Assembly: GCA_947085655.1 (NCBI GenBank)
Contig: CAMTXH010000003.1
Location: 29,850 to 93,849, forward strand
DNA from: an uncultured Omnitrophica bacterium
GTDB lineage: Bacteria; Omnitrophota; Gorgyraeia; JACQQV01
Length of the DNA: 64,000 nucleotides
Reading direction: 5' to 3'
The notes beneath the pieces are model-generated. The model saw only the letters and a program-made list of their open reading frames with translations. It was not told where the DNA came from and did not search any database. Numbering within the stretch: position 1 is the first letter of the stretch; each line of letters starts with the position of its first letter. Both the position numbers and the translations under genes were made by a program. Positions 691-62,979 of the stretch are shown piece by piece.

Positions 691-2623
<1,933 letters not shown>

Positions 2624-12202: not shown

Positions 12203-14010
12203 TGCGAAGCCACCGATGCGGCGAACTCCGGAGTGATGCGATCGGGAAGGAGGTCGCCCTCTGCGGTTGGGTTCACCGGCGCCGGGATCACGGGGGGCTG
12301 ATTTTCATTGATCTAAGGGACATCTCGGGACTGGCCCAGGTTGTCTTTCATCCCGACAACAAAAAAGTCTTTCAAGAGGCGAAGGGGCTCCGGGGAGAAT
12401 TTGTGCTTCGGGTCCGGGGAAAAGTTCAGAGACGCCCGAAAGGAACCGAGAATCCGAATCTTGCCACCGGAGAAGTGGAGATCGTCTGCGATTCCTTCGA
12501 AACATTCAATCCGTCTGAAACTCCTCCTTTTGAAGTGGAAGAACAGACCACCGCTTCGGAGGAGGTCCGGCTCGCTTATCGTTATATCGACCTTCGCCGA
12601 GAGAACATGAAGAAAAATTTGATTCTCCGGCACCGGGTGACCCAGCGGGTCCGGAATTTTCTCGACCGGGAGGGATTCATCGATGTGGAAACGCCGATCC
12701 TCACCAAAAGCACGCCGGAGGGGGCCCGGGATTTTCTGGTGCCGAGCCGGTTGAGCCCCGGCACATTTTATGCCCTTCCGCAGTCTCCCCAGCTTTTCAA
12801 ACAGCTCCTCATGGTCTCGGGACTCGACCGTTATTTTCAAATTTCTCGCTGTTTCCGGGATGAGGATCTCCGGGCGGACCGCCAGCTGGAATTCACCCAG
12901 ATCGATATCGAAATGTCATTTCCGGAAGAGAAGACCTTTTTTGAATTGATGGACCGGCTCCTGAAAGATGTTTTCGAGAATGCTTCCGATTTGATCGGGA
13001 AAAAACTGGATTGCACCTTTCAGAGGATGACGTACCAGGAGGCGATTGACCGTTTTGGCGCCGATTCACCGGACCTCCGGTTCGGAGTGGAATTGCAGGA
13101 CCTGACAGATCTTCTCCGGGATTGCGGTTTTAAGGCCTTTGAGTCTGTCGCGAGTAGCGGAGGACGGATCCTCGGGATCAATGCCCCGGGCGGAGTCAAA
13201 CTTTCGGGGAAGCAAATTGAGAAATTAAGAGAAGAGGTAAAGGAACGGGGCGCGCCCGATATCGCTTCTTTTAAATATGAAAAGGGGGAACTGGTCTCCC
13301 CCTTCTCGCATTTTTTCCGAAAGGAGTCTCTCGCCAAAGTCCAAAAAAAATTGGGGATCGGACAACATGACCTTGCCCTGATCGTTGCCGCCAAAGACCC
13401 GTTCAACTGGCAGGCGCTCGGAAGAGTCAGGGATTGCCTGAAGGAGAAAAACTACCTTGAAGACGTTCTTCTCAAGGGAAAGGAAAAGGAGTGCCGGTTT
13501 GTCTGGATTATCGATTTTCCCCTTTTTATCCGGGACGATGAGGGGAATATTGTGTCATCCCACCACCCCTTTACGGCACCCCACCCGGAAGACGTCCCCC
13601 GCCTCGAAAAAACCGGGGAGGAGTTGCTTGCCGTCCGTTCGCGTGCCTATGACCTTGTTCTGAACGGGATTGAACTCGGAAGCGGAAGTGTGAGGATTCA
13701 TGACCGCGGCGTCCAAGAAAAGATTTTTGAGAAACTGAAACTCTCCAAACAGGAACAAGAATCGCGCTTCGGATTTTTATTGAAGGCCTTTCAGTACGGA
13801 GCACCGCCGCATGGCGGCATCGCGTTCGGATTGGACCGTTTGGTCGCGATACTGGTGGATTTCCGGGAGGAGAAGTTTTCCGACACAGAACAAGCGACCA
13901 GCATCCGGGAAGTCATTGCATTTCCCAAAACACAGAAGGGGAGCTGTCCCTTGACCATTGCCCCTTCCGACGTCCCACGGGAGAAATTGAAGGAACTGGG
14001 GTTGAAATAG
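12202..14010 (+). CDS. aspS: aspartate--tRNA ligase
   Basis: The 602-aa product has an OB-fold N-terminus and a class II core. Its ATG overlaps the hisS stop. Confidence 0.95.
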   Translation: MRSHRCGELRSDAIGKEVALCGWVHRRRDHGGLIFIDLRDISGLAQVVFHPDNKKVFQEAKGLRGEFVLRVRGKVQRRPKGTENPNLATGEVEIVCDSFETFNPSETPPFEVEEQTTASEEVRLAYRYIDLRRENMKKNLILRHRVTQRVRNFLDREGFIDVETPILTKSTPEGARDFLVPSRLSPGTFYALPQSPQLFKQLLMVSGLDRYFQISRCFRDEDLRADRQLEFTQIDIEMSFPEEKTFFELMDRLLKDVFENASDLIGKKLDCTFQRMTYQEAIDRFGADSPDLRFGVELQDLTDLLRDCGFKAFESVASSGGRILGINAPGGVKLSGKQIEKLREEVKERGAPDIASFKYEKGELVSPFSHFFRKESLAKVQKKLGIGQHDLALIVAAKDPFNWQALGRVRDCLKEKNYLEDVLLKGKEKECRFVWIIDFPLFIRDDEGNIVSSHHPFTAPHPEDVPRLEKTGEELLAVRSRAYDLVLNGIELGSGSVRIHDRGVQEKIFEKLKLSKQEQESRFGFLLKAFQYGAPPHGGIAFGLDRLVAILVDFREEKFSDTEQATSIREVIAFPKTQKGSCPLTIAPSDVPREKLKELGLK

Positions 14011-14097
14011 GGACGTTTTCAGAAAGTGTCCTCCTGGCCTGCCGGCCAGGGCAGGCCAGCGTGAGGGAGATACAAGGGACACTTTCGAAAACGTCCC
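14009..14097 (+). other. long imperfect hairpin (20-bp stem, 1-nt bulge) carrying conserved motif ACTTTCGAAAACGTCCC; enclosed nested palindrome TGGCCTGCC-GGCCAGG-GCAGGCCA
   Basis: GGACGTTTTCAGAAAGTGTCC (14011-14031) pairs with GGACACTTTCGAAAACGTCC (14077-14096). It lies between the aspS stop and a lipoprotein gene. Confidence 0.5.
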
Positions 14098-14115
14098 AAG
14101 AAAAGGAGCACGACA

Positions 14116-18479: not shown

Positions 18480-20565
18480 CTCGAGCGAACTTCTCCTTGA
18501 AATCGGCACGGAGGAAATTCCGTGGTCCTACCTTGAGGGCCTTGGGGATCCCGAGCGCGGTCTCAATGCCCTTGTGAAAACGCTCCTTCCTGAATCCTTC
18601 CGGGATGAAGCAGAAATCAGGAGTTTTCAGACGCCCTGCCGGATCGTCCTTTGGGTCCTGGGACTTCCTCCATTTGATGAAAGGAAAGAGGAGGTTGTGG
18701 GTCCCAGGAAAGAGGCCTGCTATGGCTCCGACGGGAAGCCGACGGCCGCGCTTCAGGGATTCTTGAAAAGTAAAAATGCGGCTGCTAGAGATTTGACTGA
18801 GGAAAAAGGACGGATGGTCATTCGGAGAAGCGTCCGGACTTCCACCGAAACTCTTTTAAAGATCCAAATCCAGCATCTTGTCCAGCTTTTGAGCTTTCCC
18901 AAAATGATGCGTTGGAATGAGAGGGATATCCGTTTCCCGAGACCGGTCCGATGGCTTCTCTGTCTTTACAACGGGAAGGTTCTTCCGCTTTCAGACCTCC
19001 CCTTCAAGGCGGATCGAAAAACGTTCGGCTTGGGGCCGTTCAAAAAACCGCGTAGTATCCAAAAGCCGCCGGAATACTTCTCCTTTTTAAAAAAGGAGGG
19101 GATTCTTCTGGAGGAATTTTCCACACCCGACGGAGAAGGGGAACGGAAACGGACCATCCGGAAGCAATGTGAGCAGCTGGTCAGGCGGCTTGGGGGAGAT
19201 CCGGCCCGGATCGACCCGGCGCTTCTGGCTGAGGTGACAAACCTTGTCGAAAAACCGTTCCTTTTCGCCGGCACGGTCAATAAAACCTATCTTGATCTTC
19301 CGAAAGAGGTGTTGATTGCGAGCATGGCGAAGTATCAGCGGCTTTTTGCGGTGGAAGACCGCCGCGGAAAACTCCTTCCTTCTTTCATCGCCTGCGCCAA
19401 CGGAAGACCGTCTTTGGTCAAAATCCGGAAAAACTACGAGCAGGTATTAAATGCGCGTCTTGAGGATGCCCACTTCTTTTTCACAGCGGACATGCGCGAA
19501 ACACTCTCCCGGAAACGGGACCGGCTGAAACAGCTTATCTATCATCGAAAACTCGGGACGATGTTCGATAAATCGGAACGGATGGCAGAGGTGGCTTCGG
19601 CCCTTGCCGGGAAGGTCGGAGTTCAGGAATTCGCATTGGCTCAGGCCGCACGGCTTGCCAAAAATGACCTTGTGACGGCAATGGTCAAAGAATTTCCGTC
19701 GCTTCAGGGGGTGATCGGGTACTATTACGCGCGGAGGGAAGGGGTTTCGGAGGAGATTTCCCGCGCCCTTTGGGAGCAGTATTTGCCGAAGGGAACCGAT
19801 GCGGAACTCCCCAAAACGGCGCTGGGGGCGGCCCTTTCGTTCCTTGAAAAACTCGACCATCTGACCGGCTTTTTCCATGCGGGTGAAGTGCCGACCGGAA
19901 GCATGGACCCCTACGGTCTCCGGAGGGCCGCCAACGCCCTTTTCAGGATTCTCCTCGAGAGAAAATGGCATCTTCCTTTTGCGGAACTGGTCGAGAAAAA
20001 CCTCGAGCGCTTTTCGGCTGCCCTCGAAACCCGGTTGAAACTCCATGAATTTCTTCTGGAGCGTTTGAAGAGCATTTGTCGGGAGAGGGGATACCGGAGC
20101 GACTTGGTTGAAGCGGTGTCGCGTGACCTCCGGGACCCGGTCGAAACGGAAAAGAAGCTGAGTTCCCTTAGTCAGATGATGTCCACGCAGAAGGAGACCT
20201 TTTTGGCCGCTTTCAAGGTGGTGGAGCGGACCCACAACATCCTGAAACCGGTACAACCCAAAGAACAGCAGGGACTTGGGAGCGTCCGGCCGGACCTTTT
20301 CCAGGATGAAATTGAAAAAAACCTCTGGAACTTATACAATACAGGGAAGCGTCCGATTGAGAAACTGATCGCCGAAAGCGCCTGGAGCCAGGCCACGGCC
20401 CGTTATGCCCAGACCTTTTCGGAAACGTTGCATCAGTTTTTTGATAAGGTTTTGGTTAATGTGGAAGATCCGGGCATCCGGCGTAACCGCCTGGCTCTGA
20501 TGAAAGAAATCAACGAACTCTATACCAAGCCGGTGGCGGATCTCTCCAAACTGATCATTGAATAA
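18451..20565 (+). CDS. glyS: glycine--tRNA ligase beta subunit
   Basis: The 704-aa product contains LLLEIGTEEIP. It overlaps glyQ by 29 nt because no alternative in-frame start exists. Confidence 0.9.
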   Translation: MKPKKQKQNNSSELLLEIGTEEIPWSYLEGLGDPERGLNALVKTLLPESFRDEAEIRSFQTPCRIVLWVLGLPPFDERKEEVVGPRKEACYGSDGKPTAALQGFLKSKNAAARDLTEEKGRMVIRRSVRTSTETLLKIQIQHLVQLLSFPKMMRWNERDIRFPRPVRWLLCLYNGKVLPLSDLPFKADRKTFGLGPFKKPRSIQKPPEYFSFLKKEGILLEEFSTPDGEGERKRTIRKQCEQLVRRLGGDPARIDPALLAEVTNLVEKPFLFAGTVNKTYLDLPKEVLIASMAKYQRLFAVEDRRGKLLPSFIACANGRPSLVKIRKNYEQVLNARLEDAHFFFTADMRETLSRKRDRLKQLIYHRKLGTMFDKSERMAEVASALAGKVGVQEFALAQAARLAKNDLVTAMVKEFPSLQGVIGYYYARREGVSEEISRALWEQYLPKGTDAELPKTALGAALSFLEKLDHLTGFFHAGEVPTGSMDPYGLRRAANALFRILLERKWHLPFAELVEKNLERFSAALETRLKLHEFLLERLKSICRERGYRSDLVEAVSRDLRDPVETEKKLSSLSQMMSTQKETFLAAFKVVERTHNILKPVQPKEQQGLGSVRPDLFQDEIEKNLWNLYNTGKRPIEKLIAESAWSQATARYAQTFSETLHQFFDKVLVNVEDPGIRRNRLALMKEINELYTKPVADLSKLIIE

Positions 20566-20591
20566 ATAGAGAGGGATGATTCAAGGGATAC

Positions 20592-20629
20592 CCGGCCTGT
20601 CGGCCAGGACAGACTTTCGAAAACGTCCC
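20592..20629 (+). other. second copy of intergenic motif GGCCTGYCGGCCAGGRCAG + ACTTTCGAAAACGTCCC
   Basis: It shares a 17-nt identity with 14081-14097. It lies between the glyS stop and the ppdK start. Confidence 0.45.
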
Positions 20630-20641
20630 CAGAAAGGATAC

Positions 20642-23353
20642 ATGCCAAAATACGTTTACTTTTTCGGCGGAGGGAAGGCGGACGGGAATGCCGCAATGAA
20701 GGAGCTTTTAGGCGGGAAGGGTGCGAATCTGGCCGAAATGACCAACGCGGGCGTTCCGGTTCCCCCCGGTTTTACCATCACCACCGAGGTCTGCAAACTC
20801 TTTTACCGGAATCAAAAGAGGGTTCCGTCCGCCATCGCCGATGAGATTGACAAGAATCTCCAGCGGTTGGAGAGGACGATGAAGGCGCGGCTGGGGGATC
20901 CGGTGAATCCTTTGCTCCTTTCCGTCCGCTCCGGCGCAAAATTTTCGATGCCGGGTATGATGGACACGATTCTGAATCTCGGGCTCAACGACAGGACGGT
21001 GGAGGGACTCATCCGGAAGACAAAAAATGAACGGTTTTCCCTCGATTGTTACCGACGCTTCATCCAGATGTTCGGGAACGTTGTCCTCGGAATAGAGAAA
21101 TATGTCTTTGAAGAGATTATTCTGGAGAGGAAAAAACTCCGCCGCATTACCCAGGACACCGAACTGGATACCACCGACCTGAAGGAACTGATCCGGCAAT
21201 TCAAGGAAACGGTCCGCTATGATACCCAGGAAGAGCTGCCGCAGGATGCCCGGCGACAGCTGGAGATGGCGCGGGATGCGGTCTTTCTTTCCTGGAACAA
21301 CGAGCGGGCCATTTTTTACCGGAAACAGTACCGCATTCCGGATGACTTGGGGACGGCGGTGAATGTCCAGACGATGGTCTTCGGAAACATGGGAAAGACC
21401 TCGGGGACCGGCGTCGGGTTTACCCGGAATCCCTCCACCGGTGAAAAGGAGTTCTTCGGAGAGTATCTCACTAATGCGCAGGGCGAGGATGTGGTGGCGG
21501 GGGTCCGGAATCCGAAGCCTATCGGTGAATTGAAGAAAGAGATGCCTTCCGTTTACAAGGAACTGGCGGGAATTACCCGGCGTCTTGAACGGAACTACCG
21601 GGACGTTCAGGATTTCGAGTTTACGATCCAGGAAGGGAAACTTTACATGCTTCAGACCCGGACCGGGAAGCGGACCGGCCCGGCCGCCGTCAAGATTGCG
21701 GTTGATATGGTTCAGGAAAAATTGATTGCCCCCAAGGAGGCGGTGTTGCGGGTGGAGCCGGACCAATTGGACCAGTTGCTTCATCCCCGGATTGACCCGA
21801 AAGTGGAGGTTAAGGTCATTGCCAGGGGTCTGAATGCCTCGCCCGGTGCTGCGGTCGGAAAGGCCTTTTTTGATGCGACGGAGGCGGCCGAGGCGGCCAA
21901 AAAGGGGGAGCGGGTGGTGTTGATCCGAAAGGAGACCTCGCCGGACGATATCCACGGCATTGCCGCGGCACAGGGGATATTGACCGCGACCGGCGGAGCC
22001 ACCTCGCATGCGGTGGTGGTCTCCCGGCAGATGGGCAAGCCCTGCGTGGCCGGATGTTCGGCCATTGCCATCGATGAAGAAAAAGGACTTTTCGAAGTCA
22101 ACGGTCTCCAGGTCAAAAAGGGGGAGATGATTGCGATTGACGGGACAACCGGCCGCGTGATGGTGGGGGATGTCCCGACCATCAAGCCGGATATGCGGGA
22201 TCTGGAAAAAGGCGATTACGGAAAACTCCTCCGCTGGGCAGACCAATACCGGATGCTCGGCGTCCGCGCCAATGCGGATACGCCCCAGGATGCGACCATC
22301 GCCCGGCAAAACGGCGCGGAGGGAATCGGCCTCTGCCGGACAGAGCATATGTTTTTTGCGACGGACCGGCTTCCGATCGTGCAGGAGATGATTCTCGCCT
22401 CCACCCTCGAAGACCGGAAGCGCGTCCTCGACAAACTCGCGCCGATGCAAAAACAGGATTTCAAGGAAATTTTCCGGGTCATGAAGGGACATCCGGTGAC
22501 CATCCGTCTTCTGGACCCTCCTCTTCATGAATTTCTCCCGAATCGGGACGAACTGGTCGAGGAAATTCAGGAACTGGAGCTTTCAAAGAAAGAGCCCGAG
22601 CTTCTCCAGCTAAAGAAAAATCTTTTGGCCCGGATCGCCCAGCTCCATGAGTTTAATCCGATGCTGGGTCTCCGGGGTTGCCGCCTCGGGATTACGATGC
22701 CGGAGATCACGCAGATGCAGGCAAGGGCGATTCTGGAGGCGGCCTGCGAACTGGTCCGGGAGAAGATTCGCGTCTATCCGGAGATCATGATTCCGCTGGT
22801 GGGGACGGTGGAGGAATTCCGTCATCAAAAACGGGTCATCCTGGAAACGGCTGCGGAGGTTTTCAAGGTGCAAGGTCATCCGGTCCGCTTTTTAATCGGA
22901 ACGATGATAGAAATTCCGCGTGCCGCCCTCACCGCCGGAGAAATTGCCAAAGAAGCGGACTTTTTCAGTTTCGGAACCAACGATCTCACCCAAATGACCT
23001 TCGGCTTTTCCCGGGATGATACCGGGAAGTTTCTCCCGAAGTATCTGGACGAAAAGATTCTTAATTTCGATCCCTTTGTCACCATTGACCAGGAGGGCCT
23101 CGGACAACTTATCCGGATGGGGACGGAGAACGGGCGGAAGAGCCGGCCGGAGCTGAAGGTCGGAATCTGCGGTGAGCATGGCGGAGAGCCCCAGAGCGTC
23201 ATCTTCTGTCATAAAGTGGGGCTCAACTATGTCAGTTGCTCCCCCTATCGGGTTCCCATTGCCCGTCTTGCTGCGGCAAGAGCCGCCTTGGAAGAAGAAT
23301 TTCCATCCCCGGGGCGCAAGACTCAGAAAAAAACGCGTTCAAAGCGGAAGTAA
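20642..23353 (+). CDS. ppdK: pyruvate, phosphate dikinase
   Basis: The product is about 903 aa and starts [11 protein letters not shown]. It has PEP-utilising and PPDK domains and a Lys-rich C-terminal tail. Confidence 0.95.
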
Positions 23354-25001: not shown

Positions 25002-25825
25002 GTCTCATTGTGATCACCAAAAACGAAGAGGCGAATCTCCGCGAATGCCTGGAGAGCGCGGAGGGACTTCCGGATGAAATTGTCATCGTGGACGATGAGA
25101 GCACGGACCGGACCCGGGAGATTGCACGGGAGTTTACCGATAAAATTTACAGCCGGAAGATGGACCTGGAAGGACGCCACCGGAACTGGGCCGCCTCCCG
25201 TGCCACCCACGACTGGGTGCTCTGGATGGATGCGGATGAACGGATGACGCCGGAACTCAAAGAAGAAATCCGCCAAACCCTCTCGCAGAGCAATGCCAAC
25301 ATCGCCGCCTACTGGATTCCCCGGAAAAACTATCTCGGAAAGAGGTGGCTGAAACATGGCGGCTGGTACGCGGCGCACATCAAACTTTACGACCGGCGGC
25401 TGACCCGTTGGCGGGAAGTGGTGCATGATGTGGTGCACCCAGGAATTGACATCGCGGAGGGGTATAGCGGGAAGGAGTTGAAAAAGCCGCTCATTCATTA
25501 CAATTTCAAGAACATAGAGGATTTTATCCAGAAGGTAAACCGGCACTCTACCTTTGAGGCGGTGAAGTGGCATCTACAGGGGAAGAGGATCACCCTTTGG
25601 CACGGGCTTTGGAAGGCCTTTGACCGTTTTTGGAAGCGTTACGTTTATAAAATGGGTTTCCTGGACGGTCTTGAGGGATTCGTTGCCGCTTTCTTGAGCG
25701 GGTTTTATCAGTTCGCCGCCTATTGCAAGTTCCGGGAAATTCGGAAAGAGGGGATTTATCTGGACCGTGTGGCTCCATCTCCTGACACAAAAGAACAACC
25801 CATTCAGCCCTCCGTGCCCCTGTAG
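24980..25825 (+). CDS. glycosyltransferase family 2
   Basis: The product contains LSLIVITKNEE...IVIVDDESTD...DADE, a GT-A DxD fold. It overlaps the upstream gene by 22 nt. Confidence 0.85.
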   Translation: MAERKKLSLIVITKNEEANLRECLESAEGLPDEIVIVDDESTDRTREIAREFTDKIYSRKMDLEGRHRNWAASRATHDWVLWMDADERMTPELKEEIRQTLSQSNANIAAYWIPRKNYLGKRWLKHGGWYAAHIKLYDRRLTRWREVVHDVVHPGIDIAEGYSGKELKKPLIHYNFKNIEDFIQKVNRHSTFEAVKWHLQGKRITLWHGLWKAFDRFWKRYVYKMGFLDGLEGFVAAFLSGFYQFAAYCKFREIRKEGIYLDRVAPSPDTKEQPIQPSVPL

Positions 25826-25892
25826 CTCAGATGGATAGAGCAGAGGTTTCCTAAACCTCGTGTCGGGAGTTCGAATCTTCCCAGGGGCACCA
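25816..25892 (+). tRNA. tRNA-Arg (anticodon CCU)
   Basis: The cloverleaf is read by eye. The acceptor stem is GCCCCTG/CAGGGGC, followed by A and CCA. The anticodon loop TTCCTAA gives anticodon CCT. T-arm GTTCGAATC. The 5' end overlaps the GT2 stop codon. Confidence 0.88.
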
Positions 25893-25901
25893 CCTTTTAG
25901 G

Positions 25902-27602
25902 ATGCGTCGCAAAGGGATATTTGTCTTTCTAATCATTCTCCTCCTCGGTTTCGCCGTTTATTCGAACACCTTCTGGGCCTCCTTCCAGTTTGACGACGAA
26001 GTGGCCCTTGTCAAGAATCGCGCGATTTGGAGGTTGAATCTTCCTGCTCTCTGGGGGGCCTTCAATACGCGGTTTGTGACGGGGGTCACCTTTGCGCTGA
26101 ATTACGCACTCGGTGGTTTCAACGTCTTCGGTTATCACCTGTTCAATATCACCTGCCACATCCTTTCCTCATTTCTCGTATATGTTCTCGTCAGTTTAGT
26201 TTTTCAGGCGCCCGCAATGAAGGACCATCCACTGGAGTCCCATCGGGAGGGGGTGGCTTTTTGTTCCGGAGTTCTCTTTCTCGTTCACCCGGTTCAGACG
26301 ATGGCGGTGAATTATATTTGGCAGCGGGCTGCCTCCTTGGCGACCTTGTTTTATCTCATCTCGGTGACGTCGTATCTGAAAGCGCGCCTCACCTCGCGGA
26401 GGATCTATTTTGGCGCGAGTCTTTTTTCCACACTCCTCGGCATGTTTACCAAAGAAATCGCCTTTACGATTCCTTTCATGCTTTTCTTGATAGAAATCTT
26501 CTTTCTGGGATCCGAAAAGGATCTTTGGAGGCGGCTCCGCTTTCTTCTCCCGCAGTTTCTTACCCTCTGCGTCATTCCACTTACCCTTTCAAGAGCCAAT
26601 CGTGTGGTGATGCCGGTGATGTATCCCGAGTATCCGATGTCTTATCGGGAGTATCTGTTGACCCAACTGAACGCGTTTCGGACGTATTGGCGTCTTCTTT
26701 TCTTTCCGATTGCTCAGAACGTTGATTATGACTACCCGGTTGCCCGGGGTCTTCTTGAGCCGGGGACATTTTTCTCGTTTTTGTTTTTTCTGGCGATGGG
26801 AGGGGTGATGTTCAAAACGTTCCGGAAGAACCGTCTCCTTTCCTTCGGACTCGCCTGGTTTTTCCTGAGTCTTTCGGTGGAATCGGGCATCCGGCTCCTT
26901 GACCCCATTTTCGAGTACCGGCTTTACCTCCCGATGGTCGGTTTCTCCCTCTTTTTCACAGCCACCTCTTTTTATTTTTTGAAACAGACAAAAAGAATCG
27001 CGATTCTTTTTTCGGTCCTTTTCCTTGTCTTCTCCCTTGCCACGTTCCGACGGAATGCGGTTTGGAGAGATCCGGTGACCTTTTGGGAGGATACTGTCCG
27101 GAAGTCCCCCGGAAAACCGAGGCCTTATAGCAACTTAAGCGGCTCCTATTTGGAGGAGGGACGGATAGAGGAAGCGATTGAGGCCTCCCGAAAAGCCCTC
27201 AAACTCGATCCCTTCTTTGTAGATGCTTTCTATAACCTCGGTCTTGCGTATGCCAGGAAAGGGGAGTATGAAAAGGCCCTGCCGCCCTGGGAAAGGGTGC
27301 TGAAAGAGGAAAAAAACCCAAACCGTCTTGCCGAACTCAATCGGAACTTTGGTGTTATCTCAACCTGGAAAGGAGAGACGGATCAAGCCCTTAGGTATTT
27401 CGAGAAGGCCCTGGAACTGGATCCAGAAAGCCCCGAAATCTGCAACAATCTCGGATACGTTTACTTCACAAAGAGAAAGTATGAACAGGCGGTATCGTTT
27501 TACCAAAAAGCGCTCGAGCTGAGACCTGGCGATTTGGAGGCGGATCAGGGGCTCAAGATGGCCCAGGAACGGTTAAAATGGCAAAAAGGTACCCTGGAGT
27601 GA
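25902..27602 (+). CDS. multi-pass membrane protein with C-terminal TPR repeats (TMTC/DUF1736-like putative GT-C glycosyltransferase)
   Basis: The product is about 566 aa. The N-terminus has a FQFDDE motif and about 10 TM segments. The C-terminus has at least three TPR units. Confidence 0.75.
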   Translation: MRRKGIFVFLIILLLGFAVYSNTFWASFQFDDEVALVKNRAIWRLNLPALWGAFNTRFVTGVTFALNYALGGFNVFGYHLFNITCHILSSFLVYVLVSLVFQAPAMKDHPLESHREGVAFCSGVLFLVHPVQTMAVNYIWQRAASLATLFYLISVTSYLKARLTSRRIYFGASLFSTLLGMFTKEIAFTIPFMLFLIEIFFLGSEKDLWRRLRFLLPQFLTLCVIPLTLSRANRVVMPVMYPEYPMSYREYLLTQLNAFRTYWRLLFFPIAQNVDYDYPVARGLLEPGTFFSFLFFLAMGGVMFKTFRKNRLLSFGLAWFFLSLSVESGIRLLDPIFEYRLYLPMVGFSLFFTATSFYFLKQTKRIAILFSVLFLVFSLATFRRNAVWRDPVTFWEDTVRKSPGKPRPYSNLSGSYLEEGRIEEAIEASRKALKLDPFFVDAFYNLGLAYARKGEYEKALPPWERVLKEEKNPNRLAELNRNFGVISTWKGETDQALRYFEKALELDPESPEICNNLGYVYFTKRKYEQAVSFYQKALELRPGDLEADQGLKMAQERLKWQKGTLE

Positions 27603-29401: not shown

Positions 29402-29518
29402 GTTGCCTCCGCTTGCCGCTCGCTTCGATGACGCATCTTTGCTCGCTGTGGAGCAAATCCGCCGCGACACTGGATCGCGGTTTGGGATGCGTCGGATTTT
29501 CTACAGTCGCTCCGGCAA
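29402..29518 (+). repeat. 117-nt conserved structured element, copy 1 (candidate ncRNA or MITE-like element) enclosed by 13-bp inverted flanks GAAAGTCCGGGAG / CTCCCGGACTTTC
   Basis: It is 115/117 identical to 62863-62979. It contains the internal hairpins TTTGCTC-gctgtg-GAGCAAA and CCGCGA-cactgga-TCGCGG. Confidence 0.7.
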
Positions 29519-45185: not shown

Positions 45186-45199
45186 TTTTCCCGCATACC

Positions 45200-45370
45200 G
45201 ATAAGGGCAAACCGCGGGAGACCGCGGGACATCCGCGAGTGAGGCATTCATCCTCCGGATTCCCCGCCAGAGCGGCGGGGAGCAAAGCCATGGGTCCTTA
45301 AAACGGTGAAGGGTGTCAGAACACCTAACACCACACGCCGTTTTACAGGATCGCCAGGCTGCCGAAGTAA
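45200..45370 (+). promoter_or_regulatory. structured 5' leader with c-di-GMP-I (GEMM)-like motifs
   Basis: GGGCAAACC-CCGCGG-GAGA-CCGCGG-GAC (45205-45230) mirrors the Vc2 riboswitch P2 arm GGGCAAACC-stem-GNRA-stem-GGGAC. GCAAAGCC lies at 45282-45289. Further hairpins are CCCCGCC-agag-GGCGGGG and UAAAACGG...CCGUUUUA. The spacing between the two motif blocks is longer than in the canonical aptamer. Confidence 0.3.
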
Positions 45371-45929: not shown

Positions 45930-48797
45930 GTGTCCAGACGGAAAATAATTTTTCTTTTTATCCCAATTTTTCTTTTATCGACTCCTTTAGAAGGGGCGGT
46001 GAATGAAGATGCAATCCGCTACCGGATCCGGGGCTACCAACTCCAGCACCAGGGCTATGTGGAGGAAGCGATCGAACTCTACCGGAAGGCGATCGAGGCG
46101 GACCCGAACTATGCTGCTCCCCACAATGACCTGGGCGTCATTTACGAAGAACGGGGGGATCTGAAACTGGCGGAAGGGGAGTACCTGGAAACACTCCGGA
46201 TCGACCCCCAATACGTCGATGCCTATTCCAATCTTGCCATTCTCTACGGCAAACAGAATCAAAGAGAAAAGATGCTTGAAATGCTGAAAAAGCGGGTTGA
46301 CTTGGGGGAGCCGGAGGATATCGGAACCCGCGAGGCGCAGGCGAAACTGGATTCTTTGGGTGTGGTGACGGAAATTCCCGAGAAACCCCGGCCCGCTGTT
46401 CCTCCTTTTGAGAAAAGACCTTCTGCCGAAATCAGGCCCCTGAAGGAGATTCCGGAAGCCCCTCCGGTTGTAGAGGCAAAGGAGGAGCAAAAGGCGCTCC
46501 GGGAGGAAATGAAGGCGGTTAAAAAGGAAATTTTAGAGAAAGAAACGGCTGCGCGAAAACTGGAGGATCGGGAGAAAGCGGTTCAGGTTGTTGAAGAGCC
46601 TGCTGCTGAAAAAGCGGCGGCACTCCGGAATGAAGGGTTGAAACACCACCAAAAGGGCGAGCTGGATGAGGCGATCCGGAATTACCGGGAGGCGATCCGC
46701 ATGAACCCCGATTTTGCAACCGCCTACAACGACCTGGGAATTGCCCTGGAGGAAAAAGGGTTTCTGGAAAACGCCGAGACCCAATACCTGAATGCACTGG
46801 CACTCGATCCTTCCTACACCCATGCCCTCTATAACCTCGCTCTTCTCTACGCCAAAATGGAACGGCGGAAAGAGGCGATTCAAACCCTTGAAGAATTTCT
46901 GAAAAAGAAAGTGGACAGCAAGCGGAGCGGCGTCGCCCGGGCCAAACTCGAAGTCCTTTTGAATGAGGAAAAAGAAGAGGCCGAGCGGCTTGCCCGGGAA
47001 CAAGAGGCCAAACGGCTCGAAGCAGAGGCGAAACGCCGCCAGGAGGAGGAAGCAAGGAAGCGGGAAGAGGCTTTGGCGTCTCTCCGGGGGGAAGTCGAGA
47101 AAGAGGTCAAAGCCGAATATGAAGAGAAATTCAAACTGACCCAATTTTTTGAGCAGGGCAAGGTCGCTTTTCAAAACGGGGATTACCCGACGGCAAAAGA
47201 CCTCTTTGAAAAACTCCTCGTGATCGACCCGGAAAACGAAATGGGAAAAACCTATCTCGCCAAGGTTGAGGAAGCCGTTCAGGAAGCGGAACGGAAAAAA
47301 GAGATAGAAGCCGAAAGACAACGACAAGAGGCGGAAGAGGCGCGCCGGATGGAAGAGGAGAAAAGAGTGAAAGAGGAAGAGAAACAAAAGCGTACGACAG
47401 CCCTTTATGATGAAGCGAAAGAGATGTACCGTTCCGGCAATCTGGATAATGCCCTTCTCCGCTTTCAGGAGATTCTGATCCTCGAACCGGAACATCCCTA
47501 TGCAGGACGGTATGTGGATCGGATTCGGGAACGAAAAGAGGAACTTGAGGCGGAGAGGATCGCCCGTGAGAAGGCGGCCCGTGAGGAAGACCAGGCGCGC
47601 CGGCGCCAAATCGCCGAGTATTTTGAGGAAGCGGAAAAACAGGTTCGGGAGCGTTCCTACGACGAAGCAATCAAGACGTATCGAGAACTTCTTTTACTCG
47701 ACCCGGAGCATAAAGAGGCGAATCGACGGCTTGAGGAGATCCGGGAGACCCTCCGGAAAAAGAAAGAGGAAAAACATCTCGCCAAAATCCGCAAAAAAGA
47801 GACACGTCTTGAAGGTGCCGAGAAGCGGATGAAAGAATCGGCTCAGACGTATTACCAAGCAGGGCTCAAAGCGTTCCGGGAGGAAAAACTGGATCAGGCC
47901 GAATATGCGTTCCGAAAGGTCCTTTCATACGACAAAAGTCACAAAGAGGCGAATAAGCAGCTTGTCCTCTTGATGGAAAAACAGGCGGAGCTGGAGGCAA
48001 GGGTCTGGCGGGAGGAACAGGAGGCCATTTTCCGAAAGGAATACACCCCCGCCGAAGAAAAACGGCTTTACGAACGGGCAAAGGCGGCTTATGACGCGGG
48101 GGATTATCGGATGGCGCAGAAAACGCTCGAGTATCTCCTTTTTCTTGACCCGAATCATCCGTTTGCGCCGAGGGATCTGGATGAAGTGGAGGCCAAAATC
48201 CGGGTAGCGCATCAAAAGGAGGCGGTGGCCGAGGCGGCCCTCAAAAAGGAAGCTCGGAAAACCCTTTCCCGTCCTCCCTCTGTCAGTGTGACTGAACCTT
48301 TTCTCCGGGCTCAAACCAAGCCCCAGGAAATCCCCTATTTCCGGCCGTCCCCTTCCGATCGGCTGGATGCTTTCGTGGAGGATGAACCGGTTTGGACAGA
48401 CGCGCACCAGGCGATGGAAAGGGTCGCCCTTGCCTACCATCAGCAGGCGTATGACCTTCAACGTCAGAACGACGTTGAAGGGGCCATTGCCCAATACCGG
48501 AAGGCGATGGCGATCCGCTCGACACCGGGGGCGGCGAACAGTTTGGGTGTCTTGTATGAAAAGAAGGGATGGTACACCCAAGCGGAACAGTATTACAAAA
48601 AAGCGCTGAGACTTGATCCGGCGTATCTGGCGGCCCATACGAATCTGGCCCTTCTCTATGAGGATTTGGAGCGCAAGGAGGAGGCCCTGGCCCACTGGCG
48701 GATCCGGGCCGAGCAAGGGAAAAAGGGAGAGGCGTGGACTGAGCACGCCCGGCGCCGCCTTGAGGCGGTTCAGGCGGTTCCTGAAAAGAACCCTTGA
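45930..48797 (+). CDS. large secreted TPR-repeat protein with interspersed Lys/Glu/Arg-rich coiled-coil segments
   Basis: The 955-aa product has a signal peptide and a GTG start after a GGAGGA RBS. Pairs of TPR motifs (AxxYxNLGxxY) recur about 8 times and are separated by EEAERLAREQEAKRLE-type charged helices. Confidence 0.75.
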   Translation: MSRRKIIFLFIPIFLLSTPLEGAVNEDAIRYRIRGYQLQHQGYVEEAIELYRKAIEADPNYAAPHNDLGVIYEERGDLKLAEGEYLETLRIDPQYVDAYSNLAILYGKQNQREKMLEMLKKRVDLGEPEDIGTREAQAKLDSLGVVTEIPEKPRPAVPPFEKRPSAEIRPLKEIPEAPPVVEAKEEQKALREEMKAVKKEILEKETAARKLEDREKAVQVVEEPAAEKAAALRNEGLKHHQKGELDEAIRNYREAIRMNPDFATAYNDLGIALEEKGFLENAETQYLNALALDPSYTHALYNLALLYAKMERRKEAIQTLEEFLKKKVDSKRSGVARAKLEVLLNEEKEEAERLAREQEAKRLEAEAKRRQEEEARKREEALASLRGEVEKEVKAEYEEKFKLTQFFEQGKVAFQNGDYPTAKDLFEKLLVIDPENEMGKTYLAKVEEAVQEAERKKEIEAERQRQEAEEARRMEEEKRVKEEEKQKRTTALYDEAKEMYRSGNLDNALLRFQEILILEPEHPYAGRYVDRIRERKEELEAERIAREKAAREEDQARRRQIAEYFEEAEKQVRERSYDEAIKTYRELLLLDPEHKEANRRLEEIRETLRKKKEEKHLAKIRKKETRLEGAEKRMKESAQTYYQAGLKAFREEKLDQAEYAFRKVLSYDKSHKEANKQLVLLMEKQAELEARVWREEQEAIFRKEYTPAEEKRLYERAKAAYDAGDYRMAQKTLEYLLFLDPNHPFAPRDLDEVEAKIRVAHQKEAVAEAALKKEARKTLSRPPSVSVTEPFLRAQTKPQEIPYFRPSPSDRLDAFVEDEPVWTDAHQAMERVALAYHQQAYDLQRQNDVEGAIAQYRKAMAIRSTPGAANSLGVLYEKKGWYTQAEQYYKKALRLDPAYLAAHTNLALLYEDLERKEEALAHWRIRAEQGKKGEAWTEHARRRLEAVQAVPEKNP

Positions 48798-48822
48798 CAA
48801 CCCTCTAGGCGCAGGATATACT
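48794..48822 (+). promoter_or_regulatory. consensus sigma70 promoter TTGACA-N17-TATACT upstream of polA, immediately followed by GAAAACGTCCC motif
   Basis: Read from the sequence. Confidence 0.55.
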
Positions 48823-48907
48823 GAAAACGTCCCACATTTTTTCGTAAAATACCCACAAAATCTCATGTCGAGCCCGCGTCCCGTGTTTTCCCTTATGTGA
48901 TTCCCGA

Positions 48908-62848: not shown

Positions 62849-62862
62849 TGGAGGCCATCAGG

Positions 62863-62979
62863 GTTGCCTCCGCTTGCCGCTCGCTTCGATGACGCATCTT
62901 TGCTCGCTGTGGAGAAAATCCGCCGCGACACTGGATCGCGGTTTGGGATGCGTCGGATTTTCTACAGTCGCGCCGGCAA
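62863..62979 (+). repeat. 117-nt conserved structured element, copy 2, enclosed by different inverted flanks CCATCAGGG / CCCTGATGG
   Basis: It is 115/117 identical to copy 1. It lies between metF and gcvT. Confidence 0.7.

Follow-up and report, generated by a model that had tools for sequence, protein, structure and literature searches.

What is the short sequence that separates glyS from ppdK, and does it serve ppdK? The initial annotation of the 64,000-nt stretch of DNA analysed here (the window) had described it as a two-part module, a compact copy, lacking the upstream partner arm, of the one at the aspS locus, and had suggested that it may mark a processing site, or a site for an alternative sigma factor or a regulator, for ppdK. 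Its placement is correct: the module occupies 20592–20630, starting at the 27th nucleotide past the glyS stop and ending 12 nt before the ppdK ATG. The genes flanking the two loci are identified by Pfam as GlyS beta, PpdK, AspS and a LysM protein. The glyS/ppdK junction, with the sequence that we call copy B, is laid out as follows:

20563–20565: glyS stop TAA, separated from segment S of copy B by ATAGA
20571–20630: copy B as a whole (spacer, core, right arm)
20571–20591, plus strand: segment S, GAGGGATGATTCAAGGGATAC, homologous to the spacer of the aspS element at 14063–14082 and containing an in-frame ATG at 20576
20591–20612, plus strand: GC-rich hairpin core H, CCCGGCCTGTCGGCCAGGACAG, matching the hairpin core of copy A at the aspS locus
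20592–20612: CCGGCCTGTCGGCCAGGACAG, first part of the module
20613–20630, plus strand: right arm R, ACTTTCGAAAACGTCCC plus C at 20630 (= ACTTTCGAAAACGTCCCC), matching the distal 17 nt of arm 2 in copy A without mismatch
20631–20644, plus strand: ancestral junction kept 3' of the insertion, AGAAAGGA (RBS) followed by TAC and ATG
20633–20638: RBS AAAGGA

The core H of copy B can form two short stems, which are mutually exclusive, and the right arm stops 1–2 nt short of the ppdK RBS. Public gene calls take the in-frame ATG at 20576, inside the module, as the start of ppdK, which gives a product of 925 aa. The PpdK proteins of the ten closest relatives are 894–916 aa long, and the three that we fetched (901, 903 and 906 aa) start with MAKFVY or MPKYVY, at the equivalent of ATG 20642. 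This ATG, directly preceded by AGAAAGGATAC, is the true start, and the 22-residue extension MIQGIPGLSARTDFRKRPQKGY is very likely an annotation artefact.

The aspS/LysM junction holds the full form of the element, copy A:

14010–14097, plus strand: copy A, the complete element of 88 nt, located between the stop of aspS and the LysM-gene RBS
14010–14031: arm 1, GGGACGTTTTCAGAAAGTGTCC
14033–14058: core H
14063–14082: purine-rich spacer S
14076–14097: arm 2, GGGACACTTTCGAAAACGTCCC

Copy A begins with the G that closes the aspS stop codon TAG and ends 18 nt before the LysM-gene ATG. The two arms, 22 nt each, are inverted copies of one another save for one extra A, and their outermost 11 nt form perfect terminal inverted repeats, GGGACGTTTTC ... 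GAAAACGTCCC. Between them lie a GC-rich hairpin, GGCCTGCC-GGCCAG-GGCAGGCC, and the purine-rich spacer.

Exact copies of the 17-mer ACTTTCGAAAACGTCCC are found at two places in the window, 14081 and 20613. If up to three mismatches are allowed, the number of matches rises to three, against 0.49 expected, and none of 100 shuffles reached three, so the repeat is real and not the product of chance. The 19-nt GC-rich pattern GGCCTGYCGGCCAGGRCAG also occurs twice (14036 and 20594; 0.06 expected). The 17-mer and this near match bear out the relationship to the aspS locus that the initial annotation had claimed, as well as the missing upstream arm: the left part of copy B does not resemble arm 1 (p = 0.27). 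On the same figure we rejected a degenerate left arm at 20573–20583, a stretch that fits the copy A spacer instead. Across 20571–20591, 18 of 21 columns agree with the spacer at 14063–14082 (local alignment, shuffle p = 0.0002; blastn, 85.7% over 21). Pairwise searches thus recover three common segments in a changed order. Because its left part matches the spacer rather than arm 1, copy B is a mosaic of spacer, core and right arm rather than a mere truncation of the element.

Beyond the window, we read about 17 kb from the MAG GCA_964374045.1 and from several Logan assemblies that hold the exact PpdK, AspS, GroEL, FolD-like and GlyS proteins. A further copy lies there, in the same species:

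L066, 17003–17060, about 4 kb past the window end: copy D, TAGGGACGTTTCC-CTGGCCTGTCGGCCAGGACAGGC-...-GTGTCCCC

The core of copy D is 92% identical to that of copy B over 25 nt, and its short left arm TAGGGACGTTT matches copy A at 11 of 11 positions (p = 0.001); its right end is not arm-like (p = 0.58). It starts right after F190, the last conserved residue of an lplA-like protein, and is translated within the non-conserved C-terminal tail of this lipoate ligase gene, about 50 nt upstream of panB. Most relatives have a tail shorter by about 18 aa. Four segments make up the family: a left arm beginning TAGGGACGTTTTC, the GC-rich hairpin core CCTGGCCTGYCGGCCAGGRCAGGC, the purine-rich spacer GAGGGAGATACAAGGGAC and a right arm ending in ACTTTCGAAAACGTCCC. 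They are arranged as arm, core, spacer and arm in copy A, as spacer, core and right arm in copy B, and as short left arm, core and decayed right end in copy D. Inverted arms that form a hairpin are found in copy A only, B and D having one recognisable arm each. The roughly 81 kb read of this species contains three core-bearing copies, each at the 3' end of a housekeeping gene and in that gene's orientation.

The nearest named homologues of both PpdK and PolA come from Candidatus Omnitrophica/Omnitrophota MAGs. For comparison we used six loci (L038–L043) from three related lineages with 77–81% PpdK identity, in which the gene order hisS-aspS-LysM-phoH-ybeY-dagK-recO-glyQ-glyS-ppdK-sigma70 is kept. 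Their glyS/ppdK junctions are 11–18 nt long, made up of stop, RBS and ATG, against 76 nt here, and read TAG-AAAGGAAGAAA-ATG, TAA-CGAAAGGGAAGGAA-ATG and TAG-TTCAGAAAGAGGAGAAAA-ATG. The aspS/LysM junction measures 14–17 nt in two lineages (L038, L043) against 105 nt here. In the third (L040/L042) it measures 74 nt and holds an unrelated hairpin with a 10-bp stem, GAGGTCTCC...GGAGACCTC (L040:3386–3459 and L042:138–211), that stops just before the RBS; junctions of this type therefore seem to take up palindromic inserts repeatedly. The PhoH of one relative contains a LAGLIDADG intein (755 aa, L038:2905–5172), and another is present in UvrB just upstream of the window in the species studied here (1224 aa, L065:1–3515).

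None of the six loci contains a copy of the element. The initial annotation had tied its functional reading to conservation of the motif in relatives, and these loci have neither a copy of the motif nor the room for one. Given the short junctions and the lack of copies, both modules are insertions younger than the split from these relatives. Compared in this way, copies A and B are lineage-specific insertions into tight, presumably co-transcribed junctions, with filled and empty sites between related genomes in both cases. Since stop, RBS and ATG fall within 11–18 nt in the relatives, glyS and ppdK are probably co-transcribed in the group, which would be the default expectation at this junction. 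An empty-site allele at glyS/ppdK would join the glyS stop directly to AGAAAGGATACATG.

We extended the search to other genomes and metagenomes. The 17-mer had no further copy in 185,579 species genomes, a set that does not include the source genome; its 36 singleton matches lie in unrelated taxa, mostly within genes, and are consistent with chance. The arm palindrome GGGACRYTTTC(N)GAAARYGTCCC matched 16 loci in JGI metagenomes, none of which is the element: six are simple perfect palindromes and ten are AT-rich iteron arrays, one of them next to an eEF1A-type gene. These arrays, in microbial-mat metagenome contigs (L049, L054–L056, L058–L062 and L064), are made up of direct iterons, AAAGCGTCCCTAATT, about 11 per array, and an inverted pair at the centre. 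They have the half-site AAARYGTCCC in common with the studied element, in an unrelated context, and the eEF1A-type gene adjoining the array in L058 indicates that this DNA is eukaryotic or archaeal. A scan of IMG/VR with the hairpin core gave one match, in a ParB-like ORF of a GC-rich phage, which we treated as a coincidence. The matching stretch, the 27 nt TTCCCTGGCCTGTCGGCCAGGACAGGC at L071:9489–9515, is identical to the core of copy D and longer than chance predicts. A full-text literature search for the 11-mer GAAAACGTCCC returned primer sequences only.

Taken together, these data suggest, with a probability of about two in three, that 20571–20630 represents one copy, rearranged and weak in folding, of a mosaic palindromic repeat that is lineage-specific, low in copy number and of the REP/BIME/MITE kind. 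The repeat is not demonstrably a member of these classes: it lacks the REP tetranucleotide GT(A/G)G, its flanks show no target-site duplication, and the sequence read contains no transposase gene. Such an element would have spread by transposition or recombination, in the manner of REP/BIME or MITE sequences, and, as no further copy turned up in the genome and metagenome scans, we only infer that it is mobile. Its landing sites would be the few that a compact genome can tolerate, in the gap from a stop codon to the following RBS, where it would be transcribed within the operon mRNA. The strong stem-loop of copy A would bring stop codon and RBS together and could protect or mark the mRNA; any effect of the element is likely limited to mRNA structure. 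Copy B, having lost most of its structure, is probably near-neutral, with the ancestral ppdK RBS and ATG intact. The uniform gene orientation of the copies and the occurrence of the 11-mer at the polA promoter, described below, would fit a selected function as well.

The copies differ in how they are predicted to fold as RNA. Copy A reaches a minimum free energy of −57.4 kcal/mol (z −9.54; 0/200 shuffles as good), copy B −22 kcal/mol (z −1.6; 15/200 shuffles, about 7%, fold equally well), and copy D folds weakly (z −1.0). The long hairpin of copy A, with its 22-bp arms, is the kind of structure expected if the module were a selected RNA element in the glyS-ppdK transcript, that is, an RNase III or RNase E site or a 3'-end stabiliser that would let the mRNAs for the synthetase and PpdK differ in level. 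Three further points would agree with such a role: every copy is on the sense strand of its operon, the aspS/LysM junction of one relative holds an unrelated hairpin, and RNase III binds and cleaves Correia elements (PMC2649163). One C-G to T-A double change in stem 2 of the inner hairpin, between copies A and B, could be compensatory, but with three sequences it is not significant (180/500 shuffles reach it). The poor folding of copies B and D also argues against a selected RNA element, as does the absence of any element at these junctions in most relatives, and we consider this reading unlikely.

Copy A is not an intrinsic terminator, since its hairpin has no T run on its 3' side. No plus-strand match to an intrinsic terminator was found at copy A or B, and the sequences 3' of the hairpins (AGCGTG, ACTTTCG and AAGAAAAGG) contain no terminator T run. 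Rfam models gave nothing at A or B at the gathering threshold, and nothing overlapping either copy at E values up to 5. Elsewhere in the window, a c-di-GMP-I riboswitch was detected at 45196–45366 (38.4 bits, gathering score 35) ahead of a prepilin-type (N_methyl) gene; the annotated ORF start, 45306, falls within the aptamer, which probably places the true start further downstream.

A module-like stretch of uncertain family membership is found at polA:

48801–48833, plus strand: site C, CCTCTAGGCGCAGGATATACTGAAAACGTCCC, overlapping the conserved polA promoter

The promoter (TTGACA at 48794, a 17-nt spacer and TATACT at 48817–48822) matches the consensus at 11 of 12 positions, and an exact GAAAACGTCCC follows directly after its −10 box, at 48823–48833. 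Site C and copy B agree in 27 of 35 columns, with p = 0.006 for the upstream part alone. The relatives keep the promoter, but with GAACACACTTC in place of the 11-mer, which only this lineage has there. Because the promoter is ancestral and its spacer no longer than in the relatives, with no net insertion, we rejected site C as a decayed insertion. Its resemblance to the family may stem from conversion, a common binding protein or luck.

A common binding protein would make the arms operators, with the half-site GGGACGTTTTC recognised by a lineage-specific dimeric DNA-binding protein that would jointly control ppdK, the LysM-phoH-ybeY cluster and polA. This hypothesis is kept alive mainly by the 11-mer at the polA promoter, which, as that site shows no insertion, must have arisen within an existing promoter. 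The window contains four exact copies of GAAAACGTCCC, all intergenic and either 1–20 nt ahead of an RBS or immediately following a −10 box, and arm 2 of copy A is near-palindromic around TTTCGAAA, with 18 of 22 positions self-complementary. However, copies A, B and D have the GC-rich core and the spacer in common, which points to duplication of a unit rather than independent evolution of sites, and A and B have no promoter to act on. Only one good half-site is present in B and likewise in C, GGGAC-N8-16-GTCCC is found a single time in the window, a frequency that chance alone would give, the motif is missing from the relatives, and the three downstream functions have no obvious common theme. 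Joint control through such operators is thus quite improbable.

A long shot is that this is a mobile palindromic repeat family, the first described in Omnitrophota, that targets the bases between stop codon and RBS and whose 11-bp terminus GGGACGTTTTC is read by a host or domesticated-transposase protein also acting at the polA promoter. If true, in this streamlined genome the repeat would also act as a regulatory or mRNA-insulating device specific to the lineage.

That the module is itself a ppdK promoter, for sigma70 or an alternative sigma factor, is hardly credible: a site just upstream of the RBS would suit one, and the related stretch overlaps the real polA promoter, where GACAGACT reads TATACT, but the scan for sigma70 −35/−10 pairs 16–18 nt apart that detects the polA promoter found none in 20566–20641, as the initial annotation had said of this gap, or in 14011–14115, the would-be boxes at 17-nt spacing are GATACC (−35, 2/6) and CAGACT (−10, 3/6), no sigma54 GG-N10-GC or ECF AAC-N16-CGT was found by eye at the glyS-ppdK copy, an end 12 nt before the ATG leaves almost no leader for the RBS, and the motif is missing in the relatives, whose junctions are too short to hold a promoter.

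Readings of the sequence as a cre site, a T-box or a DNA uptake sequence, checked by eye, gave no match. The homology between the two loci therefore stands, whereas the proposed processing, alternative-sigma or regulator site for ppdK found no positive support, with conservation absent and no fit to sigma70, sigma54 or ECF patterns; a dedicated ppdK control site is not supported.

The palindromic repeat is also a hot spot of micro-heterogeneity and assembly breaks. Five independent assemblies of the species end inside or just past the aspS copy, and one has two SNPs in arm 1. At copy B, one Logan contig ends just before the core, while another contig and the MAG cross it unchanged. We do not take the breaks as proof of high copy number, since the two SNPs explain breaks at k = 31 equally well; they fit either micro-heterogeneity or further copies elsewhere. 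A second assembly break point in the window is found at a tRNA-Arg(CCT) gene (25816–25892), where contigs 28 (end near 25937) and 11 (start near 25841) of GCA_964374045.1 overlap.

The window contains other repeats. A 117-nt unit is present at 29402–29518 and 62863–62979 (98% identical), nested between inverted flanks that differ by locus: AAAGTCCGGGAG/CTCCCGGACTTT at about 29391–29402/29520–29531, and GGAGGCCATCAGGG/CCCTGATGACCTCC at 62850–62863/62980–62994. As a result, each copy is closed into a long hairpin (z −4.5 and −3.7). Logan contigs end about 30 nt into the second, and Rfam has no match for the unit. It looks like an element that has settled in the loops of hairpins already present, or a structured RNA with a free closing stem. 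Two Cpn10 (groES) genes flanking Cpn60 (groEL) form a 71%-identical direct repeat (window 701–830 and 2742–2871; L065:9694–12022).

Small palindromic repeats have been studied in detail in proteobacteria and in a few pathogens, but descriptions from uncultivated, compact-genome phyla such as Omnitrophota are scarce. The present case shows that such repeats exist in this phylum, placed in operon junctions. They break metagenome assemblies, as at the aspS copy, and they mislead gene callers, which made ppdK 22 codons too long and extended the lplA-like tail through copy D. For the biology of ppdK the outcome is negative, with no evidence for a dedicated control site. The element is of an ordinary kind, and its host is unusual.

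Among known systems, the REP, REPIN and BIME sequences of proteobacteria (PMC3116915, PMC3337134) are comparable in several respects. They too are short imperfect palindromes without coding capacity, located at gene 3' ends and within operons. As in a REPIN, copy A is an inverted doublet that forms a long hairpin, the other copies being partial or "singlet", and, as in mosaic BIMEs, segments have been recombined in different orders. REP sequences are defined by a 5' GT(A/G)G tetranucleotide followed by a palindrome (PMC3686654), whereas the four bases 5' of the arms here are ATAG (left arm of A), TTAG (left arm of D), CTTG (right arm of A, minus strand) and CTGG (right arm of B, minus strand). 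Unlike the GC-rich REP palindromes, the arms are A/T-rich in their centre (TTTCGAAA). The roughly 75 annotated genes of the window and its surroundings include no transposase, Y1 or RAYT gene, three copies in about 81 kb compare with tens to hundreds per REP genome, and the host belongs to Omnitrophota.

Enterobacterial ERIC elements are about 127 bp long, conserved across genera and present in many copies. Like ERIC/IRU sequences, which are reviewed in PMC2229807, the element is an imperfect palindrome in transcribed intergenic regions of operons, with size variants arising from internal deletions or insertions. It is shorter than ERIC and, in the sequences covered here, limited to a single species-level lineage.

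Bacterial MITEs, and the Correia repeat enclosed elements of Neisseria in particular (PMC2649163; reviewed in PMC2229807 and PMC10969869), offer a further comparison. Correia elements duplicate a TA target, whereas no common direct repeat is found here, the flanks being ..AAATA/AAGAA.. for copy A, ..TAGAGA/CAGAAA.. for copy B and ..ACGTTTA/GGTATT.. for copy D. Unlike a typical MITE, the element has no known parent insertion sequence and no transposase in the sequence read, and copies B and D lack one terminal repeat. The likenesses are a size of about 60–90 nt, the terminal inverted repeats of copy A (perfect over 11 nt, and over 22 nt with one indel), variants with internal deletions, a possible overlap with a −10 box at one locus, insertion near gene starts, presumed co-transcription with neighbouring genes, and presence or absence between related genomes.
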